The notes under the pieces were generated by a model. The model saw only the letters and a program-made list of their open reading frames with translations, ran no database searches and was not told where the DNA came from. From a virus (lineage: Duplodnaviria; Caudoviricetes): a DNA stretch of 25,605 nt. The stretch spans positions 1 through 25,605 of the IMG/VR virus record IMGVR_UViG_3300042389_001946. One strand, written 5' to 3'. Positions 7,085 to 23,819 of this stretch are shown here, one piece after another. The stretch's first letter is position 1. Each line of letters starts with the position of its first letter. The translations under genes were made by a program, and so were the position numbers.

Positions 7085-7810
7085 TTATATAGTAGTTCCA
7101 TTGCTCTCTATTTTCTGAACCTGTAATTGAGTTAAATCTTTTAGAGTTGTGTCTATACCATAGTTGAATTGCAAATGAAAATCACTCCAGCTTGACTCAA
7201 CATCAAGTATATCAGGATGCGGTCGGTTCTTTTTTACGTTAAAAAAATACTCTAACGACATTACGCCGTAATCATTTACCATAATATTTTTATAATCAAG
7301 TTTTGCTACTGTACCGCTTTTAAGCAAATGTTGCGTAGACTGCACATTCTCTATTACACTTGCTTTAGCAATCGATTTAATAAAGGGAGTACCGCAAATC
7401 TGAGTAAAGGCTGTTCGGACTTGTTTAGGCTGATAAATAATGCCCGGGTCACCAAGACGCTTGCACTGAATATTTATAACATCAAAAGTATGGTTTTCAG
7501 AAAGATAGTCACGAACTGTACCTTGTTTAGTATACCAATACTGTGTGATGTCACAAACAGCAAGCCAGTTTATATCGTTACGTACCTGCTCAAAAACCGC
7601 ATTGTAATTGTCAACCCGTTTCTGCATTTCTTTAACACTAAAAAGACTTATAACTTCTTTATATGGCTGTAATACAGAAATATAATCATCTTCACTATGA
7701 TTATCAATTAAGTAGAAATGATCTACACCTTGCATTAAATGGTGTTCCACCCACTCTCTTAATATAGTTGCCTCGTTTTTAAAAGTTGCTAAAATAGATA
7801 AAAAGTGCAT
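7085..7810 (-). CDS. GT-A fold glycosyltransferase (GT2-like/GT92-like), DxD motif degenerate
   Basis: LATFKNEATILREWVEHH, FYLIDNHSED; has CDITQY where its paralog has CDIDEY. Confidence 0.8.
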   Translation of the reverse strand: MHFLSILATFKNEATILREWVEHHLMQGVDHFYLIDNHSEDDYISVLQPYKEVISLFSVKEMQKRVDNYNAVFEQVRNDINWLAVCDITQYWYTKQGTVRDYLSENHTFDVINIQCKRLGDPGIIYQPKQVRTAFTQICGTPFIKSIAKASVIENVQSTQHLLKSGTVAKLDYKNIMVNDYGVMSLEYFFNVKKNRPHPDILDVESSWSDFHLQFNYGIDTTLKDLTQLQVQKIESNGTTI

Positions 7811-7811
7811 A

Positions 7812-8624
7812 TTATTTAACTCGGTTATTTTGTGCTAATTGTTTTAGTAGATGTGATGAATTATTGTGTGTTGGTTTTGCAGTCGTAGTTGGAATGGTAT
7901 TTGCTCTAACTAAATTTGCCAGTGTATTATCTTCTACATCATTAACATCATTGACTCTAAAATACTCTTCATCTCTATATGTATCGCAGATATCAAGCGA
8001 TGGGTACCCCGACGGCGAGCCTCTCACGAGTTTTGTTTTTGTAAAATACTCTCTTGACATTACTCTATAATGGTTCAAGCGAATATCTTTATAATCTATC
8101 TTTACTGTTGTGTTTTCTGTCAGGGAATGTTGGTGTATATTTAAAATATTTGCATTAGATGTTCTTACGATAGACTTAATACTACCGACTTCTTCAGCTC
8201 TTTTTATAAAAGACTCTCTAATACTCACAGGTTGTGTATCATAACCTGATGATCCGTACGCGTACCATCGTGTGTAAAGTAGATGTATGTCCTGCTTATC
8301 CAATTCTTTCATATATTCATTAGCAGTTCCAATAGGTGTAAACCAATATTCATCGATATCGCAAATGGCAAGCCACCTCACTGTGTGTTTAATCTGCTGA
8401 TACACAATATTATAGTTATTAACCTGTTCATACTTACCTGGCAGATTATAAAGTGTTACATAACCATCCTTTATAAATTCCTTTAGGACCTCTTTGTAGT
8501 TATCATCACTATTGTTGTTAATTAGATATATGTGATCAAAACCTTGCCATTTATGGTGTTCTACCCATTCCTTTAAAATCATTGCTTCGTTTTTGAAAGT
8601 CGCTAAAATGGCGAGATAATGCAT
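7812..8624 (-). CDS. GT-A fold glycosyltransferase (GT2-like/GT92-like)
   Basis: LATFKNEAMILKEWVEHH, NNNSDD, WLAICDIDEY, KSIVR, LNHY. Confidence 0.85.
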   Translation of the reverse strand: MHYLAILATFKNEAMILKEWVEHHKWQGFDHIYLINNNSDDNYKEVLKEFIKDGYVTLYNLPGKYEQVNNYNIVYQQIKHTVRWLAICDIDEYWFTPIGTANEYMKELDKQDIHLLYTRWYAYGSSGYDTQPVSIRESFIKRAEEVGSIKSIVRTSNANILNIHQHSLTENTTVKIDYKDIRLNHYRVMSREYFTKTKLVRGSPSGYPSLDICDTYRDEEYFRVNDVNDVEDNTLANLVRANTIPTTTAKPTHNNSSHLLKQLAQNNRVK

Positions 8625-12286: not shown

Positions 12287-12680
12287 TGGTGGACACGACG
12301 GGAATTGAACCCGTGTCCTCTACTAGCTCCTACCGATCTTCAAACATGCTTATATTTGGTTCGTTAAGGTGAACCACACCTAGGGACGAATTGACTTCGT
12401 CCTCCACCAATGCATTAGACAGAATGCATACTGTTTGGGTTACCTGGTTTGTACTCAGAGCAGAGCAGGTTTTTCTCTGAGCGTTTTAGAACTTAAGCTG
12501 CGAGAGCAAGTTCACCACCAACGAATGACTCGTTGCGGGAACCGCGTCCGAAGATTGCGTTCACGACGTTTTTAGCTTTGCCGTTTGTTTTTGTTGAAAG
12601 GCTTTTTAAGAGGCCAACCTTGTCATTCCTCTGCATGCTAATCAATAGAACACTCGTACAGTCGAAACCAGAACGTGCCC
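12287..12680 (-). ncRNA. ssrA: tmRNA
   Basis: 5' GGGCACGTTCTGGTTTCGAC; 3' GGACACGGGTTCAATTCCCGTCGTGTCCACCA; acceptor stem with G3.U70; pk1 AGAGG/CCTCT; tag ORF at 12582-12493 = GKAKNVVNAIFGRGSRNESFVGGELALAA*. Confidence 0.96.
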
Positions 12681-12689
12681 TAAATTGTA

Positions 12690-12777
12690 TGGCGGAAGCA
12701 AAGAGAATCGAACTCTTGAGGGCTTTAAGACCCCAGCTGTTTTCAAGACAGGTTCCTCGACCGACCGGACTACTTCC
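12690..12777 (-). tRNA. trnS: tRNA-Ser(TGA)
   Basis: Acceptor GGAAGTA/TGCTTCC, anticodon loop CTTGAAA, long variable arm, GCCA end. Confidence 0.92.
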
Positions 12778-12785
12778 TTAAAATT

Positions 12786-12813
12786 ATTGTAAAATATATT
12801 TAATAAAAATCAA
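12786..12813 (-). promoter_or_regulatory. sigma70-like promoter for tRNA-Ser/tmRNA
   Basis: TTGATT-N16-TACAAT, 8 nt before tRNA-Ser; the spacer also contains TAAATA. Confidence 0.5.
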
Positions 12814-12877
12814 CTTTTTATTTCGTGATATCTTTTTCTATCATACATTCTACCCTTACTAACTACCATGTTTATAT

Positions 12878-13471
12878 TTACATAAAAACTCGTCTTTGCG
12901 ACCAACAATACTCAGAACAGCACTGATAGTATGCATCTTCTAAATTATCATAAATAACATTAAACCTAGTATGTATGTGTGCATGATTTCCACACTCGTA
13001 AATATTACCGTTAATGCGTGCCATTCCTGCAGAAACGTTGGGTTGAAAGGTTGGTGTTTCGGAAAAAACTATGTTATTATCAATAACACTAAATTGACGA
13101 CCTCTAGGGAAGGAAACTACACCTTCTGAATAATTATCTAAGCTCTCTAGCAGCAAAGGAGATATACCATCATCATCATCTAACCGTACTGTTGTAGTAT
13201 TATTACAGATCTCTTGACACTGTTTGCGAAAATCATCAAGAGATACATAGTGTACTGTTATGCGCGAGTCATCTATTTTTATCCTATCTTGTAAAAACTT
13301 CCCGGCAAATATATGCCATGTAAAATTTTCATCTGTTTGACTTAAAACAGATGGCTTTGTAAGTTTTTCAAATACGTTAAATTTAAATTCAAGACGCTCT
13401 TCATCTCGTACCTTATGTGCTCCTGTCGGTAGAAGACCTGGTATGCTAAATCGCGTTACAATTAATTTCAT
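12878..13471 (-). CDS. putative rhamnosyltransferase-like GT-A protein
   Basis: TRFS...FEKLTKPSVLSQTDENFTW...TVRLDDDD pattern. Confidence 0.75.
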   Translation of the reverse strand: MKLIVTRFSIPGLLPTGAHKVRDEERLEFKFNVFEKLTKPSVLSQTDENFTWHIFAGKFLQDRIKIDDSRITVHYVSLDDFRKQCQEICNNTTTVRLDDDDGISPLLLESLDNYSEGVVSFPRGRQFSVIDNNIVFSETPTFQPNVSAGMARINGNIYECGNHAHIHTRFNVIYDNLEDAYYQCCSEYCWSQRRVFM

Positions 13472-13475
13472 AAGA

Positions 13476-13601
13476 TTATTTCTTACGACTCTTTTTGACC
13501 TTTGGTTCTTTAACTGTTTTTGAGATCGTGAGAGTCTTACGAATCGTTACATTGCCACTCTTAACGGTAGCTCTTTTTGTTCTTGTTGTTGTTTTGGCCA
13601 T
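13476..13601 (-). CDS. small very basic protein (41 aa, MAKTTTRTKRATVKSG...KKSRKK)
   Basis: Manually translated; fills the gap between neighbouring genes; 15 Lys/Arg and 1 acidic residue. Confidence 0.65.
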   Translation of the reverse strand: MAKTTTRTKRATVKSGNVTIRKTLTISKTVKEPKVKKSRKK

Positions 13602-13612
13602 ATGCGTTTATA

Positions 13613-13870
13613 TTAAAATTGACTAACGGAAAGTCTATACAAAATCTTTCGTAAAGCAAAATCTTCTTCATCAGCTTTACGAATAATTTCAGTCTCTGCT
13701 GTAAAATTGTGTGATGTGTGTGCATCATGATCAACAACTAAATTACCGTTTTGATCAACATAGGCTCCTACGGGCCATGAGAGAGCTCGACGAAGAGTCT
13801 GTACGGTTACTCTAAGCTCTTCCTGTGTATCGAGCTCTGCTTCTATAATTGCTTTTGCTTTTACTTTCAT
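13613..13870 (-). CDS. hypothetical protein (start revised to MKVKAK, 85 aa)
   Basis: The ORF-track start lies inside tRNA-Leu; the first ATG after the tRNA is at 13870. Confidence 0.65.
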   Translation of the reverse strand: MKVKAKAIIEAELDTQEELRVTVQTLRRALSWPVGAYVDQNGNLVVDHDAHTSHNFTAETEIIRKADEEDFALRKILYRLSVSQF

Positions 13871-13880
13871 ACTTTTAAAG

Positions 13881-14170
13881 TGGTAGCCGTGGTCGGACTC
13901 GAACCGACAAGCCAGTAACGGCAACGGATTTTCATACCACTATAGTTTTCACTACCCTTTCGGTTTGTGGTCTGGACTATACCTTGATCATAGTATCTCT
14001 ACCTTAGATCCTCGCCGTCTAGTCTCTACACCTTCCTAATTTCTTAGGCTTGGCTCGGGGTTAGCATTTTAAAGCCTTCACCGAATTTGACGAGTTCTAC
14101 TCCTATCTTTTCAAACAGGGCACTCAAATTTCTCTAAGTCCGCAATGTTTACCAATTTCATCACACGGCC
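13881..14170 (-). tRNA. trnL: tRNA-Leu(TAA), intron-containing (exon 1 14170-14136, exon 2 13932-13881)
   Basis: Spliced product GGCCGTG...GCGGA CT TAA AA TCCGT...variable arm...GTTCGAGTC...CACGGCTACCA (87 nt). Confidence 0.93.
13933..14135 (-). mobile_element. self-splicing group I intron (IC3, Azoarcus-like, 203 nt, no ORF)
   Basis: Inserted after U34 and ends in G; P1 CTT/GAG with U.G pair; core motifs AAATTCGGTGAA, CCGAGCCAAG, GGTGTAGAGACTAGACGG, AAGGTATAGTCC. Confidence 0.93.
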
Positions 14171-14192
14171 ATTTTATTCTTTCTACATCGTT

Positions 14193-14210
14193 ATTATAAG
14201 CTAGTTCCTT
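14193..14210 (-). promoter_or_regulatory. AAGGAACT-N4-TATAAT promoter for tRNA-Leu(TAA)
   Basis: Fourth copy of the motif (AAGGAACT AGCT TATAAT), 22 nt before the tRNA. Confidence 0.7.
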
Positions 14211-14258
14211 TAGATTTTCCACAGTAAGTTTCTGTCTGAGAGTGACAAGATGGAATAT

Positions 14259-14951
14259 TTACTTTCTTATTAAATCTTTATTAAAGTGTGGGTGATTGAA
14301 AATATACCACCATATGCGCTCAAAAGCGCATGCTGTAAAATAAAAATTATATACACCGTGTCTTTTCCAAAAAAGACCAGTTGTGGATTCGAGACCAACA
14401 GATGATCTCAACCAACCTTCATATATATTTTCTCGTTTAAAGTTATCTATTAATTTAATATAGTAACATTTAGGTTTTTGTAAGATTAACTCACGGGTTA
14501 ACCCGAATTGTGCCCCGACTCCAAAATCGGTTCTATCTGGCAATTTATATAGACCTGCTGCATTTAATATTTCCTTTACGTTAAGAAACTGTTTATGATG
14601 TCGATGAGCCCAGTGCCTAGAAATAACTGCCTTTGTATACCATGTAAAATCAGCTAACACTGGTTGATGAATTTGTTCTAAAAAATCTGGACAATGATCA
14701 AACGGGCGACCTTGGCAAAAAATTGTATAATCCGCTAGATTATCGTAATTTTCGATAATATGCGTTAAGTATGTATGTGCTTCTTTCCCTATATTAAGTA
14801 GATGCTTAAAGCTAGGGTTAATATCAGTACTATCTTTATTATACACAATTATATCAAACCCTGCAACTTGTTTTAACCAATCAATGCTCTCTTTATATTT
14901 TGCAACAACAAGTTGTTTTGTCTTAATATTGTTATATTGTGATTCCATCAT
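14259..14951 (-). CDS. DUF3431-like glycosyltransferase-related protein
   Basis: LVVAKYKE, NIGKEAHTYLTHIIENYDNL, FCQGRPFDH, GAQF, FERIW. Confidence 0.8.
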   Translation of the reverse strand: MMESQYNNIKTKQLVVAKYKESIDWLKQVAGFDIIVYNKDSTDINPSFKHLLNIGKEAHTYLTHIIENYDNLADYTIFCQGRPFDHCPDFLEQIHQPVLADFTWYTKAVISRHWAHRHHKQFLNVKEILNAAGLYKLPDRTDFGVGAQFGLTRELILQKPKCYYIKLIDNFKRENIYEGWLRSSVGLESTTGLFWKRHGVYNFYFTACAFERIWWYIFNHPHFNKDLIRK

Positions 14952-14996
14952 ATAATGTTAGCTACTATATTTTATATCGGCTCTCAAGTAAATCAA

Positions 14997-15080
14997 TGGT
15001 GGGCAAGGAGAGACTCGAACTCTCACGCATCTCTGCACTGGCTTCTAAGACCAGCGTGGCTACCATTACACCACTTACCC
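14997..15080 (-). tRNA. trnL: tRNA-Leu(TAG)
   Basis: CTGGT CT TAG AA GCCAG; long variable arm; ACCA end. Confidence 0.95.
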
Positions 15081-15088
15081 TAATTAAA

Positions 15089-16192
15089 TTACGAAGAGAG
15101 AAGGTCGCTAAATTCTCTTTCTGATCTCGTAAGAGCATCTATATTCTGCTTAAGTGTCTCAGCTCTTTTAATAGTCGATTGAATTTTTCCTTTTGGTACA
15201 ATCATGAACCTACCATCCTTTAAGCCGAAGTTACCACCTCTACTGCCAGAGAATCTCAGATAAAACATTGGATCGTAACCACTATCTTCCTCAGGTAACT
15301 CTCCGTTATACATGACATGATTTGCTTTGAGCTCGTATGTGTCATCACCTACATTATCTAACTCTACTTTACCTTGTAGCAGCACATGAACATTATCCTC
15401 ACCAAACTTTTCACCATAATCAGCTCCATACATAGACATTAATTTAAGCTCTTTACTATTAATTTTTCTGTAATAAGATTGCTTAGACTTAACACCGTCT
15501 GGAAATTTTTCCTTCATATCCGAAACAAACTTTTCTACTTCTTCATGTTTACAAATGCTCTTACCAGACTTACAAGTTATTCCGCCATACTGCTGAAAGT
15601 CAGTAGGTTTGCTACCATCTTTATGTGAGATAAAGATAGCAGGACTTCCGTTGTATGTTAAGCTGAAATCACTTTTAGGCATACCCTTAGTTGTTTCAAT
15701 GCCGTTTATTTTAGACTTAACGCCATTTATATCTACATAGAAAAAGTCTTGTTCTATTTCAAGAAGAATAGTTTCAATCTGTCTTTTTATATTATCTATA
15801 ACGCGGTTCTCAGCTTTAAGTGTAGTACCTTTGCCTTTACCTAAGACTATAGGATATTCGTTTCCTTCAGTATCTTTTACTATATAAGTATCGAATTGAC
15901 TAGAGGTAGACCCTTCATCACCTGGCTCTGCTATACGTACAATTTCGAGATCTGCATCTTTAAGAATTTTTTCAAAACTACCTCTGTCAAAATTATCTAG
16001 AGGCTGTAGTCTAACGTCTTTAGATGAAGCACCTGGTTCTAAATTTTCATCCTTAGATGATATAATAGTAGCTATCTCTTTTTTTGAGTATTTCTTCTCA
16101 TTAATAAAATTGATTTTATGTCTATCTTGACCCACACTACCTTTAGGTGCTATTCGCTCTGTATAAAGTTTTTCTATTTCCCAGGAATGCAT
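15089..16192 (-). CDS. putative PD-(D/E)XK-like nuclease
   Basis: AE...PKSDF...IFISHKDG...FQQYGG arrangement; GACTAAATA late box. Confidence 0.6.
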   Translation of the reverse strand: MHSWEIEKLYTERIAPKGSVGQDRHKINFINEKKYSKKEIATIISSKDENLEPGASSKDVRLQPLDNFDRGSFEKILKDADLEIVRIAEPGDEGSTSSQFDTYIVKDTEGNEYPIVLGKGKGTTLKAENRVIDNIKRQIETILLEIEQDFFYVDINGVKSKINGIETTKGMPKSDFSLTYNGSPAIFISHKDGSKPTDFQQYGGITCKSGKSICKHEEVEKFVSDMKEKFPDGVKSKQSYYRKINSKELKLMSMYGADYGEKFGEDNVHVLLQGKVELDNVGDDTYELKANHVMYNGELPEEDSGYDPMFYLRFSGSRGGNFGLKDGRFMIVPKGKIQSTIKRAETLKQNIDALTRSEREFSDLLSS

Positions 16193-16229
16193 ACTTATAT
16201 ATTTAGTCTATTTAGTATAAAATAAAAGA

Positions 16230-16310
16230 TGGTACGGACGGCAGGATTCGAACCTGCGGTGATTGCCTCGGTGTAAACGAGGTGCGTTCGGCCACTACGC
16301 TAACGTCCGC
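16230..16310 (-). tRNA. trnV: tRNA-Val(TAC)
   Basis: CCTCG TT TAC AC CGAGG; GTTCGAATC; ACCA end; 8-nt variable region. Confidence 0.9.
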
Positions 16311-16320
16311 GTTAAAAATA

Positions 16321-16394
16321 TGGACGCACGTTCCAGTAACGCTCTGGACTACGCGGTTTTGCAGACCACTGCATGACTTCTCTGCCAACGTGCG
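16321..16394 (-). tRNA. trnC: tRNA-Cys(GCA), non-canonical T-loop
   Basis: Acceptor CGCACGT/ACGTGCG, U73, GTGGT CT GCA AA ACCGC; T-loop AGCGTTA. Confidence 0.88.
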
Positions 16395-16405
16395 AAATAA
16401 AACTA

Positions 16406-17251
16406 TCAACCAAAGCTTGTATCACGGTCAACTACATTTAGTCTCGGCGTTTCAGGCTGCGGTTCTTCCTTTGTTGGTTCTGGCTCCTTCTTTGGCGTTT
16501 TTTCTTCTTTGAGAAGAGAGCCTGTAGAAGCAATATTATAAGATAACAGAAGCGCCACAGCAAGTGGATCAAATACTGCTATAATTACACAGATAAACCA
16601 AATAACAACGGTATCAAGAGGTTTATCAACCTGTTGAGCTATAAACTTAAATGTACCGATATCTTTTGCTTTAGATATTTCTGTTTTTAAACTTATAACC
16701 TCGTTATCCTTTTCAAATTTAAGCGTTTGAAGTGATTGTGTTCTTGATGTGAGGTCTTTAATTTCTGCAGCTGAGCGTTCAATATCAGCGTAAATAGGAG
16801 CAGCTGACTGTCTAGACATAGACGGTAAGCGCTTTTCCTGCGATTCACGCGACTTATTGAGTGTATCAACACGTGTATTAATCTGTTGTATCTCGTTATC
16901 GAGACTTGCTTTTTGTTGTTCAATAAGAGTTATCTGTGAATCGATGCCTGAAAATTTAGCTGAATTAACTTGGTAAGCAGAAGAAAGATAACCAAATATA
17001 CCAAGAGATGTTATTGCCATTAAGATAAGAATAGCAATTGACATATACGCTTTAAGCCACCACACTGTTTTTGTCCAGTAACGATATAAATAGGAAGTAC
17101 CTACAACCTTACCAAATTCAAGCGCACCTGCCATAATCAAGACCTGGTAATAGCTGCCCATGAAGAGAGTCGCAATACCCTGTACAGAAAAATACGCTGC
17201 TGATCCAGCTACAAGCATAGCACTTAGAAATAATAACAACCTGAAGAACAT
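16406..17251 (-). CDS. membrane protein with central coiled coil
   Basis: Three N-terminal hydrophobic helices, a heptad-rich middle and a C-terminal TM (FDPLAV); TAAATA 5 nt upstream. Confidence 0.8.
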   Translation of the reverse strand: MFFRLLLFLSAMLVAGSAAYFSVQGIATLFMGSYYQVLIMAGALEFGKVVGTSYLYRYWTKTVWWLKAYMSIAILILMAITSLGIFGYLSSAYQVNSAKFSGIDSQITLIEQQKASLDNEIQQINTRVDTLNKSRESQEKRLPSMSRQSAAPIYADIERSAAEIKDLTSRTQSLQTLKFEKDNEVISLKTEISKAKDIGTFKFIAQQVDKPLDTVVIWFICVIIAVFDPLAVALLLSYNIASTGSLLKEEKTPKKEPEPTKEEPQPETPRLNVVDRDTSFG

Positions 17252-17303
17252 GTCTATATTTATTTAATCTTTTTTTATTGATATCATTATACCTCTTTGT
17301 ATA

Positions 17304-18038
17304 TCAATTGATTTCTAATAGCGTACACGAAGATCCGAACGATTGATCATTCCAGTCAATGAGAGGTAATTGCAAATGTTTTCTCCACTCGTTCATCTGT
17401 TGCATCTTTTGATCGTGATTGTATGCACCTGTAGCATGATGCAATGTTAATTCTTTTGCGTGTACATCTCTAATTGCGCCTGAGAAAAAATAATTAGAAT
17501 CTAGAAGAGCACGCGATACATTAAGCTCTCTAAGCAAATTGTTTATAACACTCTGATCTCCGAGTTTATACTGTGAAAAATCATGTTCTAATGTTTTGTC
17601 TAATAATAGAGAAATTTTGGGAGACTTTTTAATCATAAAAAATCCAGTATTCGCATCTTTATTCAATTCATACCATATGCAATTGTTGCTATTAACAAAA
17701 GGTTGATCAGATTGGCCAATATACAAATATTGGCTTTCTTTCATGTCTTGCCAAACTTTAACAATTACTTCGGGGTTAAAAACTTGAATGTCGGAATCTA
17801 TTAGACCAATAATATCTCCATCATCTACAAGATCATACAGCTCTTTTAAGAGCTCTATCTTTTTCCTCACAAAAAAGAACCATTCATTGCTTCGAAAGCC
17901 GTTAGATCGTTTATTAAACTTACATGCATTTATGTGTATTCGATCATGTTCTAATCCACGTGTACAATTTCGAGCAAGCGGAGCGAATTCTTCATTATAA
18001 CAAACTATAAAGTTTAAATGGTTATTTTTATATATCAT
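17304..18038 (-). CDS. nucleotide-diphospho-sugar transferase (GT-A; GT77/GT34-like)
   Basis: LIDSDI (DxD), NTGFF, DQSVINNLL, HHA. Confidence 0.8.
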   Translation of the reverse strand: MIYKNNHLNFIVCYNEEFAPLARNCTRGLEHDRIHINACKFNKRSNGFRSNEWFFFVRKKIELLKELYDLVDDGDIIGLIDSDIQVFNPEVIVKVWQDMKESQYLYIGQSDQPFVNSNNCIWYELNKDANTGFFMIKKSPKISLLLDKTLEHDFSQYKLGDQSVINNLLRELNVSRALLDSNYFFSGAIRDVHAKELTLHHATGAYNHDQKMQQMNEWRKHLQLPLIDWNDQSFGSSCTLLEIN

Positions 18039-18066
18039 ATACAGTATTTACACTCATGTAAAAAAA

Positions 18067-18140
18067 TGGCACGTCGTGTAGGAATCGAACCCACGTTAGC
18101 AGATTTGGAATCTGCAGTCCTGCCATTGAACGAACGACGC
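18067..18140 (-). tRNA. trnW: tRNA-Trp(CCA)
   Basis: GCAGA TT CCA AA TCTGC; GCCA end. Confidence 0.95.
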
Positions 18141-18141
18141 A

Positions 18142-18216
<75 letters not shown>

Positions 18217-18247
18217 TTTAAAAAAGACAAAGCGAAATTTAGTTTAA

Positions 18248-18778
18248 TCAAAAACCCAGTTTGTTCTTTAATTTCTGAAATGTAGATTGAGGCTTAAAGG
18301 ATTTAACCTTATGGGCAGGAGGAGTTGATTGCCTCTTTTCCGACCTTGCTCCTACATCTTTAGCTTCTTGCTTTAATATATCTGAAGCCTTGTAACCAAA
18401 GCGATGGAGATCAAAATACATTTTTTTGTCTGTATTAGTAATATATTTTTTTGCTAACTGCTCAGCAGCTGCTATAATCTGTTCGGGTGTACTTTGAGCC
18501 GTTAAATTTAATTCCTTCACGTATCTCAACGAACCTGGTTTATTATATGTATCTAAAAATACCTTAGGATCTTCAAAAGTTGATCTTATATTATCTTGGT
18601 TCATTCTTTCCCAGTCCCGTCTTGATGATTGAAGTTCTCTTTCTTGCTCCTGTTCTCTTGTTGGTCTTGACCTGGGCGCAGAGTCTTCAATATCCCCATA
18701 TTTATTACGAACTTCAAAACTAGCCTCTAAAACCTTATCATATGCTTCAGCTATAAGAATCTCATCTCTCGTCTTCAT
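18248..18778 (-). CDS. hypothetical late protein, possible head-packaged internal protein
   Basis: TAAATA 6 nt upstream; N-terminus MKTRDEILIAEAYDKVLEA contains I/V-x-E|A motifs. Confidence 0.7.
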   Translation of the reverse strand: MKTRDEILIAEAYDKVLEASFEVRNKYGDIEDSAPRSRPTREQEQERELQSSRRDWERMNQDNIRSTFEDPKVFLDTYNKPGSLRYVKELNLTAQSTPEQIIAAAEQLAKKYITNTDKKMYFDLHRFGYKASDILKQEAKDVGARSEKRQSTPPAHKVKSFKPQSTFQKLKNKLGF

Positions 18779-18818
18779 TATCTTTATTTATGCAAATTTA
18801 TCAACTAATCTATAAAAA

Positions 18819-18895
18819 TGGTCGGGATGACACGATTCGAACATGCGACATCTGCGTCCCAAACGCAGCGCTCTACCAGGCTGAGCTACATCCCG
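18819..18895 (-). tRNA. trnP: tRNA-Pro(TGG)
   Basis: Acceptor CGGGATG/CATCCCG; CTGCG TT TGG GA CGCAG. Confidence 0.96.
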
Positions 18896-18899
18896 TAAA

Positions 18900-18975
18900 T
18901 GGAGCCGGATATCAGAATTGAACTGATGACCTATCGCTTACAAGGCGATTGCAACTACCACTGTGCTAATCCGGC
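18900..18975 (-). tRNA. trnT: tRNA-Thr(TGT)
   Basis: Acceptor GCCGGAT/ATCCGGC; ATCGC CT TGT AA GCGAT. Confidence 0.95.
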
Positions 18976-18983
18976 GTAAAAAC

Positions 18984-19637
18984 TTATAAATTGTTCATAC
19001 TCCCTCTCTTTTTTCCGTTTTGTGGAACAAAGTCGGGGAGATATTTAGAAAAAGATTTGACAAGATTGGGTTGTGAATGCTTATAACCTATTCTTTGAAC
19101 ACCACTAAACCCTTCCTTGCAGTATATATTATATAAATCACTAAGCTCTTTTTGTTTGTTTAATAGATTGAGCTGCATTTTTTGTTGTCTTTGTTTCTTT
19201 TTTGCTTCTTTTGCTCTGACTGTATGATATGAAGCAATTCTTCCTCTCTCCCAACCTAGAGGTATTTGTTCTATTGTTTTTGCTTCCTCAATACCGTTAG
19301 TAATCCAGAAAGTTCCCGATTGTGAATTATTTTGACCACTTTGTGATGCTGATTGAGCTTTACTAAACTTTCTTCTCAACCAGCCATACATTTTGTTGTT
19401 TAGCCTTTTAGGTATCATCATTGCAGCAGCTCTAATTAGTTTATAATTATTTGGATTGATCTTAACTAATAATTGATGCGCTATATAATGCTCTTCTGGT
19501 GTGAGGCTAACAAGATTACTTTCTTCATCGGTACCTCCCATACATCTCGGAATGATATGGTGCTTTTCTTTATAGCCTTCTAGAACTCTTTCTCTTCCTC
19601 TTTCTATGAGTTTATTATAGATTAGTTCGTAATTCAT
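18984..19637 (-). CDS. free-standing HNH homing endonuclease
   Basis: HHIIPRCMGG...NLVSLTPEEHYIAH HNH core; WITNG NUMOD-like motif; basic C-terminus. Confidence 0.9.
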   Translation of the reverse strand: MNYELIYNKLIERGRERVLEGYKEKHHIIPRCMGGTDEESNLVSLTPEEHYIAHQLLVKINPNNYKLIRAAAMMIPKRLNNKMYGWLRRKFSKAQSASQSGQNNSQSGTFWITNGIEEAKTIEQIPLGWERGRIASYHTVRAKEAKKKQRQQKMQLNLLNKQKELSDLYNIYCKEGFSGVQRIGYKHSQPNLVKSFSKYLPDFVPQNGKKRGSMNNL

Positions 19638-19687
19638 AACTGTTAACTATAATATTTAATGTATTACTACCAAATTAACAGTAAAAA

Positions 19688-19763
19688 TGGCTCCCCGGGT
19701 TGGTCACGATCCAACGACATCCGCATTAACAGTGCGGCGCTCTGCCAACTGAGCTACCGGGGA
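19688..19763 (-). tRNA. trnN: tRNA-Asn(GTT), non-canonical T-loop
   Basis: Acceptor TCCCCGG/CCGGGGA; CCGCA CT GTT AA TGCGG; T-loop ATCGTGA. Confidence 0.93.
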
Positions 19764-19858
19764 ATTAAAAATTGTGCAGGGTTTATCGTCATTCTCTTTG
19801 GACATCCTCCTGCTTATTCCAAATCAGTTGGGAGCTACCACAACAGCGAGCTTACTTA

Positions 19859-20092
19859 TCAATTACCATTGACAAAAGTGTAGAGCTCTTTTGCTCTATC
19901 AATTATCTGTTCTGATGTAGGTAGAAGATCAGCAATTTCTTGCTCGTTAATTTTTTCTTCTACCCATGTTCCATCTTCTATCATTCGCTTCTTTCTATTG
20001 TGAAGCTTTTCGTGATAGATGTTCATAAGATCGCCGTGAGCGATGCTTAATACTTCCAACCTTATTTCGTATGCATTTTTTTGTGTGTTCAT
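19859..20092 (-). CDS. small hypothetical phage protein
   Basis: 77 aa, KNAYEIRLEVL...IIDRAKELYTFV; plausible helical protein. Confidence 0.75.
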   Translation of the reverse strand: MNTQKNAYEIRLEVLSIAHGDLMNIYHEKLHNRKKRMIEDGTWVEEKINEQEIADLLPTSEQIIDRAKELYTFVNGN

Positions 20093-20257
20093 ATGTGTGT
20101 AATGTCAGAGTGTTTTGTCTGACGATACTACTTATTGCACAAATTATCAAATGCAAGAAAATTTGCCCATAACAGATTGCTGCTACACTCACCCAGGGCT
20201 GGGGCTATCTAGAAACCACATCTAGCTGCGTCATACTTTATCGTGTATGAATACGAA

Positions 20258-20328
20258 TTGCGAGGGGGAGGAATTTAACCTCCACTCTAGACTATGGGCC
20301 TAGCGATCTCCGTATGATCCCTCTCGCA
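20258..20328 (-). tRNA. degenerate tRNA-Met-like element (anticodon CAT, no encoded CCA)
   Basis: TGCGAG/CTCGCA acceptor; D stem GATC/GATC; CTAGG CC CAT AG TCTAG; GGAGG TTAAATT CCTCC. Confidence 0.65.
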
Positions 20329-20333
20329 AAGTG

Positions 20334-20517
20334 TTTTCCCCACTACCGAATAATTGACCAGAGTCAACTTGAAGAAACGCAGTGACTATTTCATCTTGGT
20401 GGCTAATTCCAAGACTAGTTTAATGTGCGTCGGATTACATTCGGCGTCATCGGGTTGCCATCCCGTTCTTAGCCTCAATGCTCATTGTAGGATCATCGCC
20501 TACAATGGCAGGGAAAA
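20334..20517 (-). ncRNA. pseudoknotted multi-stem structured RNA (possibly manA-motif-like)
   Basis: Nested stems TTTTCCC/GGGAAAA, CATTGTAGG/CCTACAATG, CGGG/CCCG, CCGAATG/TATTCGG, ACGCA/TGCGT, TCTTGG/CCAAGA, GTTGAC/GTCAAT; pseudoknot GGCTAA/TTAGCC. Confidence 0.7.
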
Positions 20518-20520
20518 AAA

Positions 20521-21312
20521 TTATTCGGCTAGTGCTTCATATCGACTTAAAATGTCTGTTGTATCAATATGATTGCGTTGTGGAAAAAAGGCGTAATGAA
20601 CAAATAAAGTATCACCTATAATTCGATTTATTGTACCTAGAGAGCGTGGCTTATCTACAGATAACCACTGTTCTTCGTTTTTACTAACAACTCCGCTAAA
20701 TTTTAAGAACTCATCACCCCGCCATGAAATTACATTAATAGAAACACGCTCATTAGCATATAACTGCCAATCTGGAAGAGTAAATTGGTGATCTTGTGCA
20801 AGCTTACTTAAAAAATCGCGATGTAATTTTTCTGCAAAGTCTGAATTCTTCCATCCTGTTGGGCACATACATGCATAACTAGACCTACCGTAGGATGCAT
20901 CAAGATTACCAGTGCGTTGATGTAGGTGTGTAATTAATGCATTATTAATAATATTACCGTATAACAAAAACGATGAAGTATCCTTAATACGTGCATCGAA
21001 TAGACTTGTTAGTGACCCTTGTCTAATATAAACAATATCATCGTCTAATCTTACATATATTTCATCAAGATTAATATAATCTGTAAAAAAGTTATAGATT
21101 GAATTGATACCATCTACAGGCACAGTAGGGTATTTGATACAAATAAAATCATACTGTTCTTGTAACGATTCTATATATCTAATATCGCTTTCATCGGTTG
21201 TATTAAGCCAGATATCCCACCTATCAAATTCACCTTTACATTTTATAAGATGTTTTAATAAAATCTTTAAATATCGCTCTCTACCAGCTGGAGTAACTAT
21301 AATGCGCAACAT
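20521..21312 (-). CDS. GT-A fold glycosyltransferase-like protein
   Basis: TPAGRERYL, YVRLDDDIVYI (DxD), VHYAFFPQR; TATAAATA upstream. Confidence 0.75.
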   Translation of the reverse strand: MLRIIVTPAGRERYLKILLKHLIKCKGEFDRWDIWLNTTDESDIRYIESLQEQYDFICIKYPTVPVDGINSIYNFFTDYINLDEIYVRLDDDIVYIRQGSLTSLFDARIKDTSSFLLYGNIINNALITHLHQRTGNLDASYGRSSYACMCPTGWKNSDFAEKLHRDFLSKLAQDHQFTLPDWQLYANERVSINVISWRGDEFLKFSGVVSKNEEQWLSVDKPRSLGTINRIIGDTLFVHYAFFPQRNHIDTTDILSRYEALAE

Positions 21313-21359: not shown

Positions 21360-21445
21360 TGGTGGGCAGAGCTGGATTCGAACCAGCGTAGGCGTTAGCC
21401 AGCAGATTTACAGTCTGCCCCCTTTAGCCACTCGGGCATCTACCC
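21360..21445 (-). tRNA. trnY: tRNA-Tyr(GTA)
   Basis: GCAGA CT GTA AA TCTGC; long variable arm; ACCA end. Confidence 0.96.
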
Positions 21446-21453
21446 ATAAAAAT

Positions 21454-21533
21454 TGGTTGCGGGGGTGAGAGTCGAACCCACACCGAAGCCTAGCTTATGA
21501 GACTAGTTCAGCACCACTACTGACTGCCCCGCG
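21454..21533 (-). tRNA. initiator-like tRNA-Met(CAT)
   Basis: Acceptor CGCGGGG/CCCCGCA with C1:A72 mismatch; CTAGT CT CAT AA GCTAG; ACCA end. Confidence 0.88.
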
Positions 21534-21545
21534 ATTGAAAATTGA

Positions 21546-21656
21546 GCCGACTAAAGAGGCGACATAGATACATTCCCGTACGCACCCGCATACGCAGTCC
21601 TGCACGTCATCTGTATCTATATACCGGGCATGGAGCCCGTTAACCTCTCTAGCGGC
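21546..21656 (-). ncRNA. unannotated 111-nt branched hairpin RNA
   Basis: Closing stem GCCG-CTAGAGAGG/CCTCTTTAG-T-CGGC; side hairpin CGGGC/GCCCG; ATAGATACA/TGTATCTAT; apical CGTGC/GTACG and CTGC/GCGG. Confidence 0.65.
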
Positions 21657-21677
21657 AAATATTAAAAAGTTGAAATT

Positions 21678-21737
21678 TAGTGAGCTTATTGCATCTCAAT
21701 CTCCCTCTCGGACCTTAGTGGCTTCTGGCGCTCACTA
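21678..21737 (-). ncRNA. unannotated 60-nt structured element
   Basis: Perfect 8-bp closing stem TAGTGAGC/GCTCACTA around short internal hairpins; starts 14 nt after a promoter -10 box. Confidence 0.45.
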
Positions 21738-21751
21738 CCTTCTGTCTTAAT

Positions 21752-21769
21752 ATAATATCTAAGTTCCTT
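21752..21769 (-). promoter_or_regulatory. AAGGAACT-N4-TATTAT promoter at the head of the ncRNA/tRNA array
   Basis: Fifth copy of the motif. Confidence 0.65.
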
Positions 21770-21778
21770 TAATCAAAT

Positions 21779-21812
21779 AAAAAAGCGAGCTTTTTTAGGG
21801 CTCGCTTTTTTT
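21779..21812 (-). terminator. intrinsic terminator (conditional; part of the putative attenuator)
   Basis: AAAAAAAGCGAGC-CCTAAAAAA-GCTCGCTTTTTT; a competing GCTCGCTTTT copy lies upstream at 21827-21836. Confidence 0.85.
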
Positions 21813-21836
21813 ATGTACCAGGAATGAAAAGCGAGC

Positions 21837-21905
21837 TTAAATAACGTACCATCCTGGGCAATTATTGCCAGGTAGTACAGTTACTGTTGTATAAGTGCTT
21901 TGCAT
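21837..21905 (-). CDS. putative attenuator leader peptide (22 aa, MQSTYTTVTVLPGNNCPGWYVI)
   Basis: GACTAAATA box 7 nt before the ATG, as for other late genes; the stop codon abuts the antiterminator arm. Confidence 0.7.
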   Translation of the reverse strand: MQSTYTTVTVLPGNNCPGWYVI

Positions 21906-21936
21906 GTAAGTTTATTTAGTCTAGTTGTATGATTTT

Positions 21937-23217
21937 TTATACAGTTATTCTGATTCTACTGCGAATTGCTGAAAGCTTACGCTTCTTGAGAAGTACTGCT
22001 CCACCTTCGCGTGATCCTTGACCATCGGTATTACCTTCGATTGTATCGATATAACCGTCTTGAGGATCGCTTATAGCTAAACCAATGTGTGAGAAGGTAA
22101 ACATAACAATGTCGCCAGCTTTGATATCATCTTTGTGAGGCTTCTTAAGTTGAACTTTATTATTCTGTTTTGCTGCCCAATCTTCAAATCCCCAAGCACT
22201 TGCTGTTGTTGGTCTCTTGAATGTATACGAATTGTCTTTCATAGCTTCGCGCATTAACCAGCAGATGAACGCTGCACACCATGGCCATCCTTGTTCTGGA
22301 TCTAAGGAGGTTGCTGATTTATATTCGTTAACTCTTGGACCGCAGTTAGTGCCATTTACTTCTTGAACTCCAATTTCTTTCCTAGCTAATTCAACTAACT
22401 TTACTGCTAGAGGAGCTTGTACAGCTGCAGGAGCTGATGCTGTAGTTGATGCTGTTACGATAGGAGCTTTTGTTGAACCCTTTACAAGAGCTGCTTCTTC
22501 ATCTCTACGTCTTAGTAGACCGTCTAGACCTTTTCCGACCCAAATACGCTTCATGTTTGTAATCTCTTTAGCAATTGCTGCATAGTCTTTACCAGCAATA
22601 AGACCGCGAATGTTTTTCATTTCTTCACGATTCTTACCAGTTACAGCTGCACCTCTATTGAATACAAGAGATACAAGAGCACCAAATGCATCTGGATGAA
22701 GCTCATTAGCACCTGGGAATGCTTTAAGTGTTTCATTTACAAATCTCGGTAATGTACTCTCTTTAAACACCTTAAGAGCGCTCTCCCATGGTATCTCAAT
22801 ATCCTTTACAGAAGGTATTAATGACTTAGCTGATGAGTTTTTAGCACCTAAACATTTGGATAATCTGCTAAATACATCGCCTGTGAGTACTTTACCCCAA
22901 TCTGATGTGAATTGATCATCGGTGTTATAACCTAAGTCATAACCAACGCCGATTGTTACACCAGAAGCACCGCCTGGGTAGCATGGCTTCTTAAGTGCTT
23001 TATTATAATAAGCTTCACCACCGCCTACTTCATGCTTGATAATTAAATCTAAAGCTTTTTGTGATATTGGTAGTTCAGGCTCTTGTACTGGAGCTGGTAC
23101 TGGTGCAGCAACTGGTGCTGGAGCTGATGGTTTTGCACTTGACTGAGCTACTGATTTAGCTGTAGGTGTAGTTAAGTACTTTAATACTGATGTTAATATG
23201 TCTAATGCGATTTTCAT
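21937..23217 (-). CDS. two-catalytic-domain endolysin: lysozyme/pesticin-like muramidase plus CHAP
   Basis: IIKHEVGG...PGGASGVTIGVGYDLG...LVSLVFNRG...GLLRRRDEEA; CHAP motifs PWCAAFICW, HIG, TIEGNT; Pro/Ala linkers. Confidence 0.9.
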   Translation of the reverse strand: MKIALDILTSVLKYLTTPTAKSVAQSSAKPSAPAPVAAPVPAPVQEPELPISQKALDLIIKHEVGGGEAYYNKALKKPCYPGGASGVTIGVGYDLGYNTDDQFTSDWGKVLTGDVFSRLSKCLGAKNSSAKSLIPSVKDIEIPWESALKVFKESTLPRFVNETLKAFPGANELHPDAFGALVSLVFNRGAAVTGKNREEMKNIRGLIAGKDYAAIAKEITNMKRIWVGKGLDGLLRRRDEEAALVKGSTKAPIVTASTTASAPAAVQAPLAVKLVELARKEIGVQEVNGTNCGPRVNEYKSATSLDPEQGWPWCAAFICWLMREAMKDNSYTFKRPTTASAWGFEDWAAKQNNKVQLKKPHKDDIKAGDIVMFTFSHIGLAISDPQDGYIDTIEGNTDGQGSREGGAVLLKKRKLSAIRSRIRITV

Positions 23218-23461: not shown

Positions 23462-23722
23462 ATGGACTTTATAGGTCTAATAAAGAACGCCTTGTGTGCT
23501 TTAACTTCTTATCTGGAGTTGAAGAACAAGGCGTTCTATTATGATATAATTCAAAAATCTAAAGCTAGACAGAAAGAACTAACAAATGAAATCGAAGAAC
23601 TACGTGCTAAAGGGACTAATGATAGCAATGATCGCGCTGACATCTTGCGCTCCGAGCTCATCAACGAACGTAAAACCCTTGAACATCTATCAGCCGTCTA
23701 TTCTCTCTCTGGAAAAGGGTAA
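23462..23722 (+). CDS. putative i-spanin (Rz-like)
   Basis: N-terminal hydrophobic segment plus coiled coil; overlapped in the +1 frame by a lipoprotein ORF. Confidence 0.6.
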   Translation: MDFIGLIKNALCALTSYLELKNKAFYYDIIQKSKARQKELTNEIEELRAKGTNDSNDRADILRSELINERKTLEHLSAVYSLSGKG

Positions 23723-23819
23723 AGCCGTTATAACTAAAGACGGTATCTATACACCTCAGACTGATGAGGTTTGGCATTCAGATGCTCGTTATAGAAAATT
23801 AGAAAGAGAGCTGTATTAA
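23586..23819 (+). CDS. putative o-spanin lipoprotein (Rz1-like)
   Basis: Signal peptide with lipobox ALTS-C; overlaps the 3' half of the upstream gene. Confidence 0.7.
   Translation: MKSKNYVLKGLMIAMIALTSCAPSSSTNVKPLNIYQPSILSLEKGKAVITKDGIYTPQTDEVWHSDARYRKLERELY

Follow-up and report, generated by a model that had tools for sequence, protein, structure and literature searches.

Introduction

Amino-acid operons such as those headed by trpL, hisL, pheL, thrL, and ilvL are controlled by ribosome-mediated leader-peptide transcription attenuation. A broader sensor is found in mycobacteria. In the accessible text of PMC10274678, the whiB7 uORF has a mixed composition, slow translation favours its antiterminator, the shortages that it senses depend on its amino-acid content, and antibiotics as well as starvation trigger the response. 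The trn operon (tRNA L-array) of Anabaena PCC 7120 is a tRNA array induced by translation stress (PMC8421152) and controlled by the repressor TrcR (PMC10272220), according to the available portions of these papers. For phage tRNAs, the expression level decides rescue from retron-Eco7 and PrrC; the available part of that report has the tRNAs driven by a strong promoter and describes no conditional switch (PMC11555353), and it suggests a likely purpose for the array considered here. The literature searched, with subscription journals mostly outside it, gave no published case of an attenuator in a phage or ahead of tRNA genes.

Here, we analysed a 25,605-nucleotide stretch of a tailed-phage record (hereafter the window), in which a leader-peptide attenuator had been proposed ahead of a tRNA array. 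The element is real and conserved. We consider it likely that it is a ribosome-coupled transcription attenuator adding late tRNA-array transcription when decoding is slow. Like the trp/his/thr-type attenuators, it has a short ORF whose stop is placed so that a ribosome covers segment 2 (terminator probability 0.99 at the stop), mutually exclusive 1:2, 2:3, and 3:4 helices in the models together with an intrinsic terminator, and termination predicted without translation in most homologues. The proposed layout of this type, with an arm directly behind the stop and exclusive helices, is therefore borne out in silico. Unlike them, it is a phage element with no run of one regulatory codon, it starts nearly leaderless from a phage late box, it is followed by an internal bypass promoter, and what lies downstream is structured RNAs and tRNA genes, not a biosynthesis or synthetase operon. 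The best non-tRNA Rfam match was Thr_leader (RF00506; 28.8 bits, E 0.003), short of the gathering score of 55. No leader-family match appeared at E 0.05 in 8 relative loci, and no T-box riboswitch in the window at gathering or at E up to 10. The phage leader would work like the trp/his/thr attenuators yet is not a member of that group. Its mixed codon content fits a broad sensor, the nearest being the whiB7 uORF, but that uORF is bacterial, Ala-rich, and controls a transcription factor (PMC10274678, accessible text). The Anabaena operon shares the tRNA array, whereas it uses TrcR, has no leader peptide, and lies on a host plasmid (PMC8421152 and PMC10272220, available portions).

Results

The leader lies between an endolysin-like gene and a tRNA array

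The virus record is only about 20% complete, so the phage may own further tRNAs; 14 lake-water metagenome DNA runs contain more than half of the window's sampled words. On the minus strand, the order is an endolysin-like gene (21937..23217; lysozyme and CHAP domains), the co-oriented leader element, two conserved structured RNAs, and an array of tRNAs and a tmRNA reaching to 12287. A transcript of the endolysin-like gene would also enter the leader's terminator. Two overlapping small ORFs at 23462-23819 (plus strand) were read as a spanin-like pair with no family match, and ORFs that look homologous to them are found immediately upstream of the leader in L115, L119, L120, and L312.

The first two tRNA genes of the array, Met and Tyr, occupy 21360..21533 (minus strand, ARAGORN). 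The remaining array (12287..21312, minus strand) comprises a CAT-anticodon tRNA-like gene (near 20330-20257, minus strand, read by hand), Asn, Thr, Pro, Ala, Trp, Cys, Val, Leu, an intron-bearing Leu, Ser, and the tmRNA, interspersed with genes bearing their own late boxes. ARAGORN called ten tRNAs in the window, and two more were assigned by hand. The tRNA-Cys (16320-16393, minus strand), missed by ARAGORN and by Rfam at default thresholds, is near-identical to an ARAGORN-called tRNA-Cys in L117; the second tRNA-Leu (13880-14172, minus strand; Rfam 60.6 bits), also missed by ARAGORN, has its anticodon loop split by a group I intron. The tmRNA (12287-12680, minus strand) encodes a 29-residue tag, and a tmRNA is also present in the relatives L006, L007, L015, and L016. 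A late box with a 19-codon, Lys/Arg-rich ORF at about 12810-12869 (minus strand) lies directly ahead of tRNA-Ser and the tmRNA. No terminator was seen behind it, and it may be due to chance.

Conserved structured RNA 1 (21672..21741, minus strand; 70 nt) heads the array, where the array's own transcript is predicted to begin. It is conserved at 78-83% in relatives, with double changes at 5 of 14 consensus pairs, and has counterparts in L004 (5054-5119), L255 (2474-2545), and L314; in L114-type arrays, a different-looking RNA occupies its position. RNA 2 (21547..21656, minus strand; about 110 nt) folds with a z score of -5.3 and has double changes at 11 of 40 pairs in 4 sequences. It has a counterpart in L117 (10259-10375, minus strand) and is kept or missing as one unit among related arrays. 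Neither RNA matched an Rfam family. Likenesses of RNA 1 to SRP RNA, a ribozyme, or an rRNA-type leader gained no support from Rfam and were discarded. A third conserved structured RNA (20337-20515, minus strand; about 180 nt) has a closing stem and is 79-98% identical in relatives; 3' of it, on to about 20160, lie the odd CAT-anticodon tRNA-like gene and then another conserved non-coding stretch. A glycosyltransferase-like gene with its own late box (20521-21312, minus strand) occupies the position that tRNA-Gly has in the sister strains L258 and L261; such inserts come and go in the array.

Architecture of the leader element

A motif check of the window found all claimed motifs at their minus-strand coordinates. 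The element begins with a putative T4-type late promoter box (21913..21919), 7 nt ahead of the ORF. Late boxes sit at -12/-13 to -6 relative to the start (accessible text of PMC1524935). This spacing places the predicted start near 21907, about 2 nt ahead of the ORF, so the leader mRNA would be nearly leaderless. By eye, start codons 3-9 nt behind a late box recur in the window, and 11 of 18 such distinct ATGs open frames of at least 73 codons. A scan of the 13 upstream ORFs revealed no gene for a late sigma factor, and the label "T4-like" accordingly derives from the promoter motif.

The leader ORF (21837..21905) has 22 codons plus a stop and encodes 13 different amino acids, among them 4 Thr and 3 Val, which are scattered. 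In folding, the ORF pairs with itself in a long 1:2 hairpin (21824..21905), whose base includes the antiterminator arm. This arm, segment 2 (21827..21839; arm proper 21836-21827), stands directly behind the stop and can pair with 21809-21800. Two further segments lie within the ORF (21878-21868 and 21857-21846), and a 9-mer at 21818..21826 is a second partner of 21857-21850 in the fold model; no clear counterpart of the 9-mer was seen in relatives. The intrinsic terminator (21779..21812) consists of an A-run with the 5' stem (21812-21800) and the 3' stem with the U-tract (21790-21779), where 21805-21800 pairs with 21790-21785 across a 9-nt loop and the U-tract proper is 21784-21779. The terminator is also terminator-like on the plus strand.

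The region 21770-21912 folds with a z score of -5.8, and 0 of 200 shuffles were equally stable; the terminator alone scores -5.9 and the alternative arm pairing -3.3. The window's terminator stem is common to 23 viral stretches, with a tRNA nearby at 1 of 23, while the upstream arm was found only in the window's own contig (1 match). The upstream arm is not a generic by-product of the terminator.

The element is conserved at the head of related tRNA arrays

Exact patterns for three arms and eight ORF codons retrieved only the window's own contig from viral contigs, and by such patterns no close homologue of the leader was found outside the sister strains. Matches of blastn against 50,697 phage records were limited to the tRNA part. 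A scan with the relatives' terminator gave 120 mostly unrelated loci, with a downstream tRNA at 2 of 131 oriented sites, and the mostly unrelated loci were reused as controls. The RNA 1 pattern had 16 matches in metagenomes, namely 7 phage arrays (2 sister strains, 1 new leader, and 4 leaderless) and 9 chance-like ones. A further scan yielded arrays in 7 of 40 matches, and the RNA 1 pattern had no match in 185,579 genomes. We then read the region upstream of the first tRNA in phages reached via the endolysin, RNA 1, or the adjacent HNH gene. A profile of the latter led to a 139-kb contig carrying a leader and a tRNA array (L322, G043:C1) in a Saccharibacteria bin; the contig is probably a binned phage, and the bin is not a host assignment. 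Among the weaker leader-model matches (29 bits or less), those inspected were plain terminators and were set aside.

Nine further distinct leaders (L114, L115, L119, L120, L255, L312, L314, L315, and L322) were recovered in this way. Together with the window's they fall into about five sequence groups and do not amount to ten independent cases. All nine head tRNA arrays and share one order: a promoter-like start, an ORF of 20-21 codons, an arm behind the stop complementary to the 5' side of the terminator, the terminator, a sigma70-type promoter, and the array. In 11 of 11 rows, window and sister included, the ORF has 20-22 codons and the stop lies 48-54 nt before the U-tract. With 95 of 267 sites omitted as belonging to neither class, an automatic filter for this geometry passed 8 of the 12 terminators that head arrays and 1 of the other 160; since the filter was drawn from these leaders, only the 1/160 is a fair null. 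Two of its four misses are leaders by eye, and the other two belong to one unrelated record. Relatives that keep the terminator and lack the ORF, named in the original prediction as contrary evidence, were not encountered: all ten array-heading family terminators have the ORF, eight by the filter and two by eye. One leader, L322, was found by the HNH profile once the leader model was fixed and is thus out of sample; it scored 48.8 bits (E 3e-9).

In the terminator stem, 4 of 7 pairs carry double changes among 10 aligned leaders, with window and sister counted as one event. The window's arm forms a duplex of -14.8 kcal/mol with its own terminator arm and of -1.8 to -3.2 kcal/mol with eight others, and over 10 bp it perfectly matches a terminator stem unlike those of all relatives. 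These alignments indicate that the post-stop arm and the terminator have changed together. Since the eight terminators other than the window's resemble one another, a leader's own arm comes out as the best partner in just 2 of 9 rows. Between close leaders (5 pairs compared, no frameshifts), the peptide varies freely while length, frame, and stop position stay constant, and the start codon and the type of stop codon swap in place.

Folding with a modelled ribosome predicts a switch

We modelled equilibrium folds of the nascent RNA to the end of the terminator stem. To represent the ribosome, all bases were kept unpaired up to an assumed edge, 13 nt beyond the first base of the A-site codon. 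With a ribosome at the stop, the terminator probability in the window was 0.99; it was at most 0.03 at codons 2-7, 0.65-0.99 at codons 8-13, at most 0.01 at codons 14-19, and 0.18 at codon 20. The proposal that a ribosome at the stop masks the antiterminator arm and favours termination thus agrees with the fold model, and so does read-through upon stalling, as far as codons 2-7 and 14-19 are concerned; controls rarely switch. Failed translation, which had also been expected to allow read-through, behaves otherwise: with no ribosome, 8 of 11 leaders have a terminator probability of at least 0.87; the value is 0.46 for the window and 0.93 for the sister strain. A second switch had been proposed inside the ORF. 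Its pairing does appear in the model at codons 8-13; its direction is termination, in that it blocks the antiterminator.

Switching was scored as a mean terminator probability below 0.5 at 4-8 codons before the stop. None of 160 unrelated control terminators switched by this measure, although in 3 of 160 a single position fell under 0.3. When the window's ORF and spacer were dinucleotide-shuffled, 3 of 300 shuffles switched. At the stop, the terminator probability was at least 0.98 in 11 of 11 leader rows. The out-of-sample leader L322 switches, from 0.98 to 0.02. Three of ten leaders (L312, L114, and L120) failed the test; in L312 the probability never fell below 0.76, whereas L114 does drop at codons 8-11. 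The sister strains differ from the window's leader by a single change, at 21896, which turns Thr into Ala at codon 4, adds a pair to the 1:2 helix, and lifts the no-ribosome terminator probability from 0.46 to 0.93; one change against about 2 expected is not significant.

These results bear on a simpler explanation, in which a stand-alone small late gene or small RNA precedes an ordinary terminator whose role is to end the lysis operon and shield the array, the arm being a local duplication with no regulatory role. The endolysin gene ends 125 nt before the terminator, which looks like one on either strand, a promoter of its own serves the array, MAFFT places the window's arm as an insertion, and some homologues do not switch in the model. 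We nevertheless regard this explanation as unlikely. It does not account for a peptide that diverges freely at constant length and stop position, nor for the individually matching arm that accompanies each terminator of the family just after the stop, and generic terminators lack both the geometry (1/160) and the switch (0/160).

A predicted internal promoter follows the terminator

A predicted sigma70-like internal promoter lies at 21749..21776 (minus strand) and matches the consensus at 9 of 12 positions. The caveat that such a promoter could bypass the terminator holds: the 9/12 match at 21776-21749 is conserved in place in relatives, where a better -35 element is found at the matching position. 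By themselves, sigma70-like matches are at chance level (42 found, 36 expected). A sigma70-type promoter stands between terminator and array in all leader-bearing loci. Terminator and internal promoter are separated by a conserved non-coding stretch in L114 (about 7745-7870), L115, and L312 (about 7085-7150). By this position, the stretch would be the first target of read-through; L119 has an ORF in its place.

Phages whose arrays are most like the window's start directly at the internal promoter, with neither leader nor terminator. The leader model detected no leader in G002, G003, G020, G047, and G048 (most similar array) or in G006, these records being fragments. The claim that the phage makes its tRNAs only when host tRNAs are short therefore goes too far, since an internal promoter follows every leader terminator and the most similar arrays lack leader and terminator. 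Expression was also proposed to be late, and the window does have a late box, whereas the leaders of relatives have sigma70-like starts. Several late boxes lie inside the array. Given the conserved internal promoter, the leaderless closest arrays, and these late boxes, we read the switch as a conditional boost and not as an on/off gate; on the model, the leader is best read as a boost added to the output of the internal promoter.

The same observations might mean that a once-functional attenuator is now vestigial or minor here, the internal promoter and the in-array late boxes supplying the tRNAs, as close arrays manage without a leader. However, the window's arm matches its own divergent terminator stem perfectly over 10 bp, and the sole change in the sister-strain leader adds a pair (again one against about two expected, not significant). 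Decay of this kind appears extremely unlikely to us.

Leader codons partly match the tRNAs of the array

The array's tRNAs decode 12 of 21 codons in the window's leader (P 0.02 against a background of 0.33, and P 0.06 against nucleotide shuffles). Counted by amino acid, the array has a tRNA for 17 of 21 residues (P 0.005; shuffles 0.013). The codon match between leader and array is modest. Codons 14-20 specify Asn, Asn, Cys, Pro, Gly, Trp, and Tyr, and tRNAs of the array decode 6 of these 7, a post hoc count with a hand-calculated P of about 0.007; a tRNA for the Gly codon is present in the arrays of the sister strains L258 and L261. By eye, Lys and Arg codons occur in all nine other leaders, whose arrays have Lys or Arg tRNAs, and the window has neither. 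Lys, Arg, Phe, Glu, Asp, and His are absent from the window's leader and from its narrow array alike.

Eight of 10 distinct leaders, the window's among them, have a Trp codon four codons ahead of the stop. This position would fit an attenuator that senses general ribosome availability, coupling, or nascent-peptide arrest at the conserved Trp, for example under antibiotic stress or ribosome-targeting defence, and not the supply of tRNA. The leader has no single-codon run, its codon match to the array is modest, and the whiB7 uORF, in the accessible text, answers antibiotics as well as starvation (PMC10274678). Against such a sensor, the Trp is lost in L115 and L120; its codon belongs to the 3' strand of the 1:2 hairpin, whose pairing can account for its conservation; and the stretch predicted to be sensitive in the window consists of array-served codons. 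We judge general sensing to be quite unlikely.

Metatranscriptome contigs over the leader

Two of 4 metatranscriptome runs, which come from two studies, each hold one contig of low depth reaching from 21684 to 21884 or 21894. These contigs cross the ORF, the terminator, and RNA 1 and do not extend beyond the promoter. Run X15 has equally low-depth contigs in the endolysin gene, so DNA carry-over is possible. With neither strand nor ends defined in the contigs, and with similar pieces in the endolysin gene, they are only a weak hint of read-through. Runs X16 and X19 gave no contig over the leader, which carries no weight either way.

Discussion

The attenuator that we consider likely would act as follows. 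A ribosome that reaches the stop would cover the arm, and the terminator would form. A ribosome stalled at codons 2-7 or 14-20 would leave the arm free to pair with the 5' strand of the terminator, and the polymerase would read on. The signal would be too little charged or intact tRNA, registered across many codons and not for one amino acid, and the output a boost above the internal sigma70-type promoter.

A more far-reaching reading is a feedback loop on the tRNA pool. The leaderless mini-gene would sample the codons that its array serves, its content having evolved with the array, and the phage would detect cleavage of host tRNA or starvation and answer with replacement tRNAs. We put this forward tentatively, as a possibility somewhat short of an even chance.

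The purpose of phage tRNA arrays is debated, and codon bias, replacement of degraded host tRNA, and escape from anticodon nucleases have all been considered. A cis-acting switch that reads ribosome speed for tRNA genes would make this question testable with a 140-nt reporter, and the codons that trigger read-through would name the stress that the phage expects. Such a switch would also bring tRNA genes and a phage late promoter within the reach of ribosome-mediated attenuation, beyond amino-acid and resistance operons.
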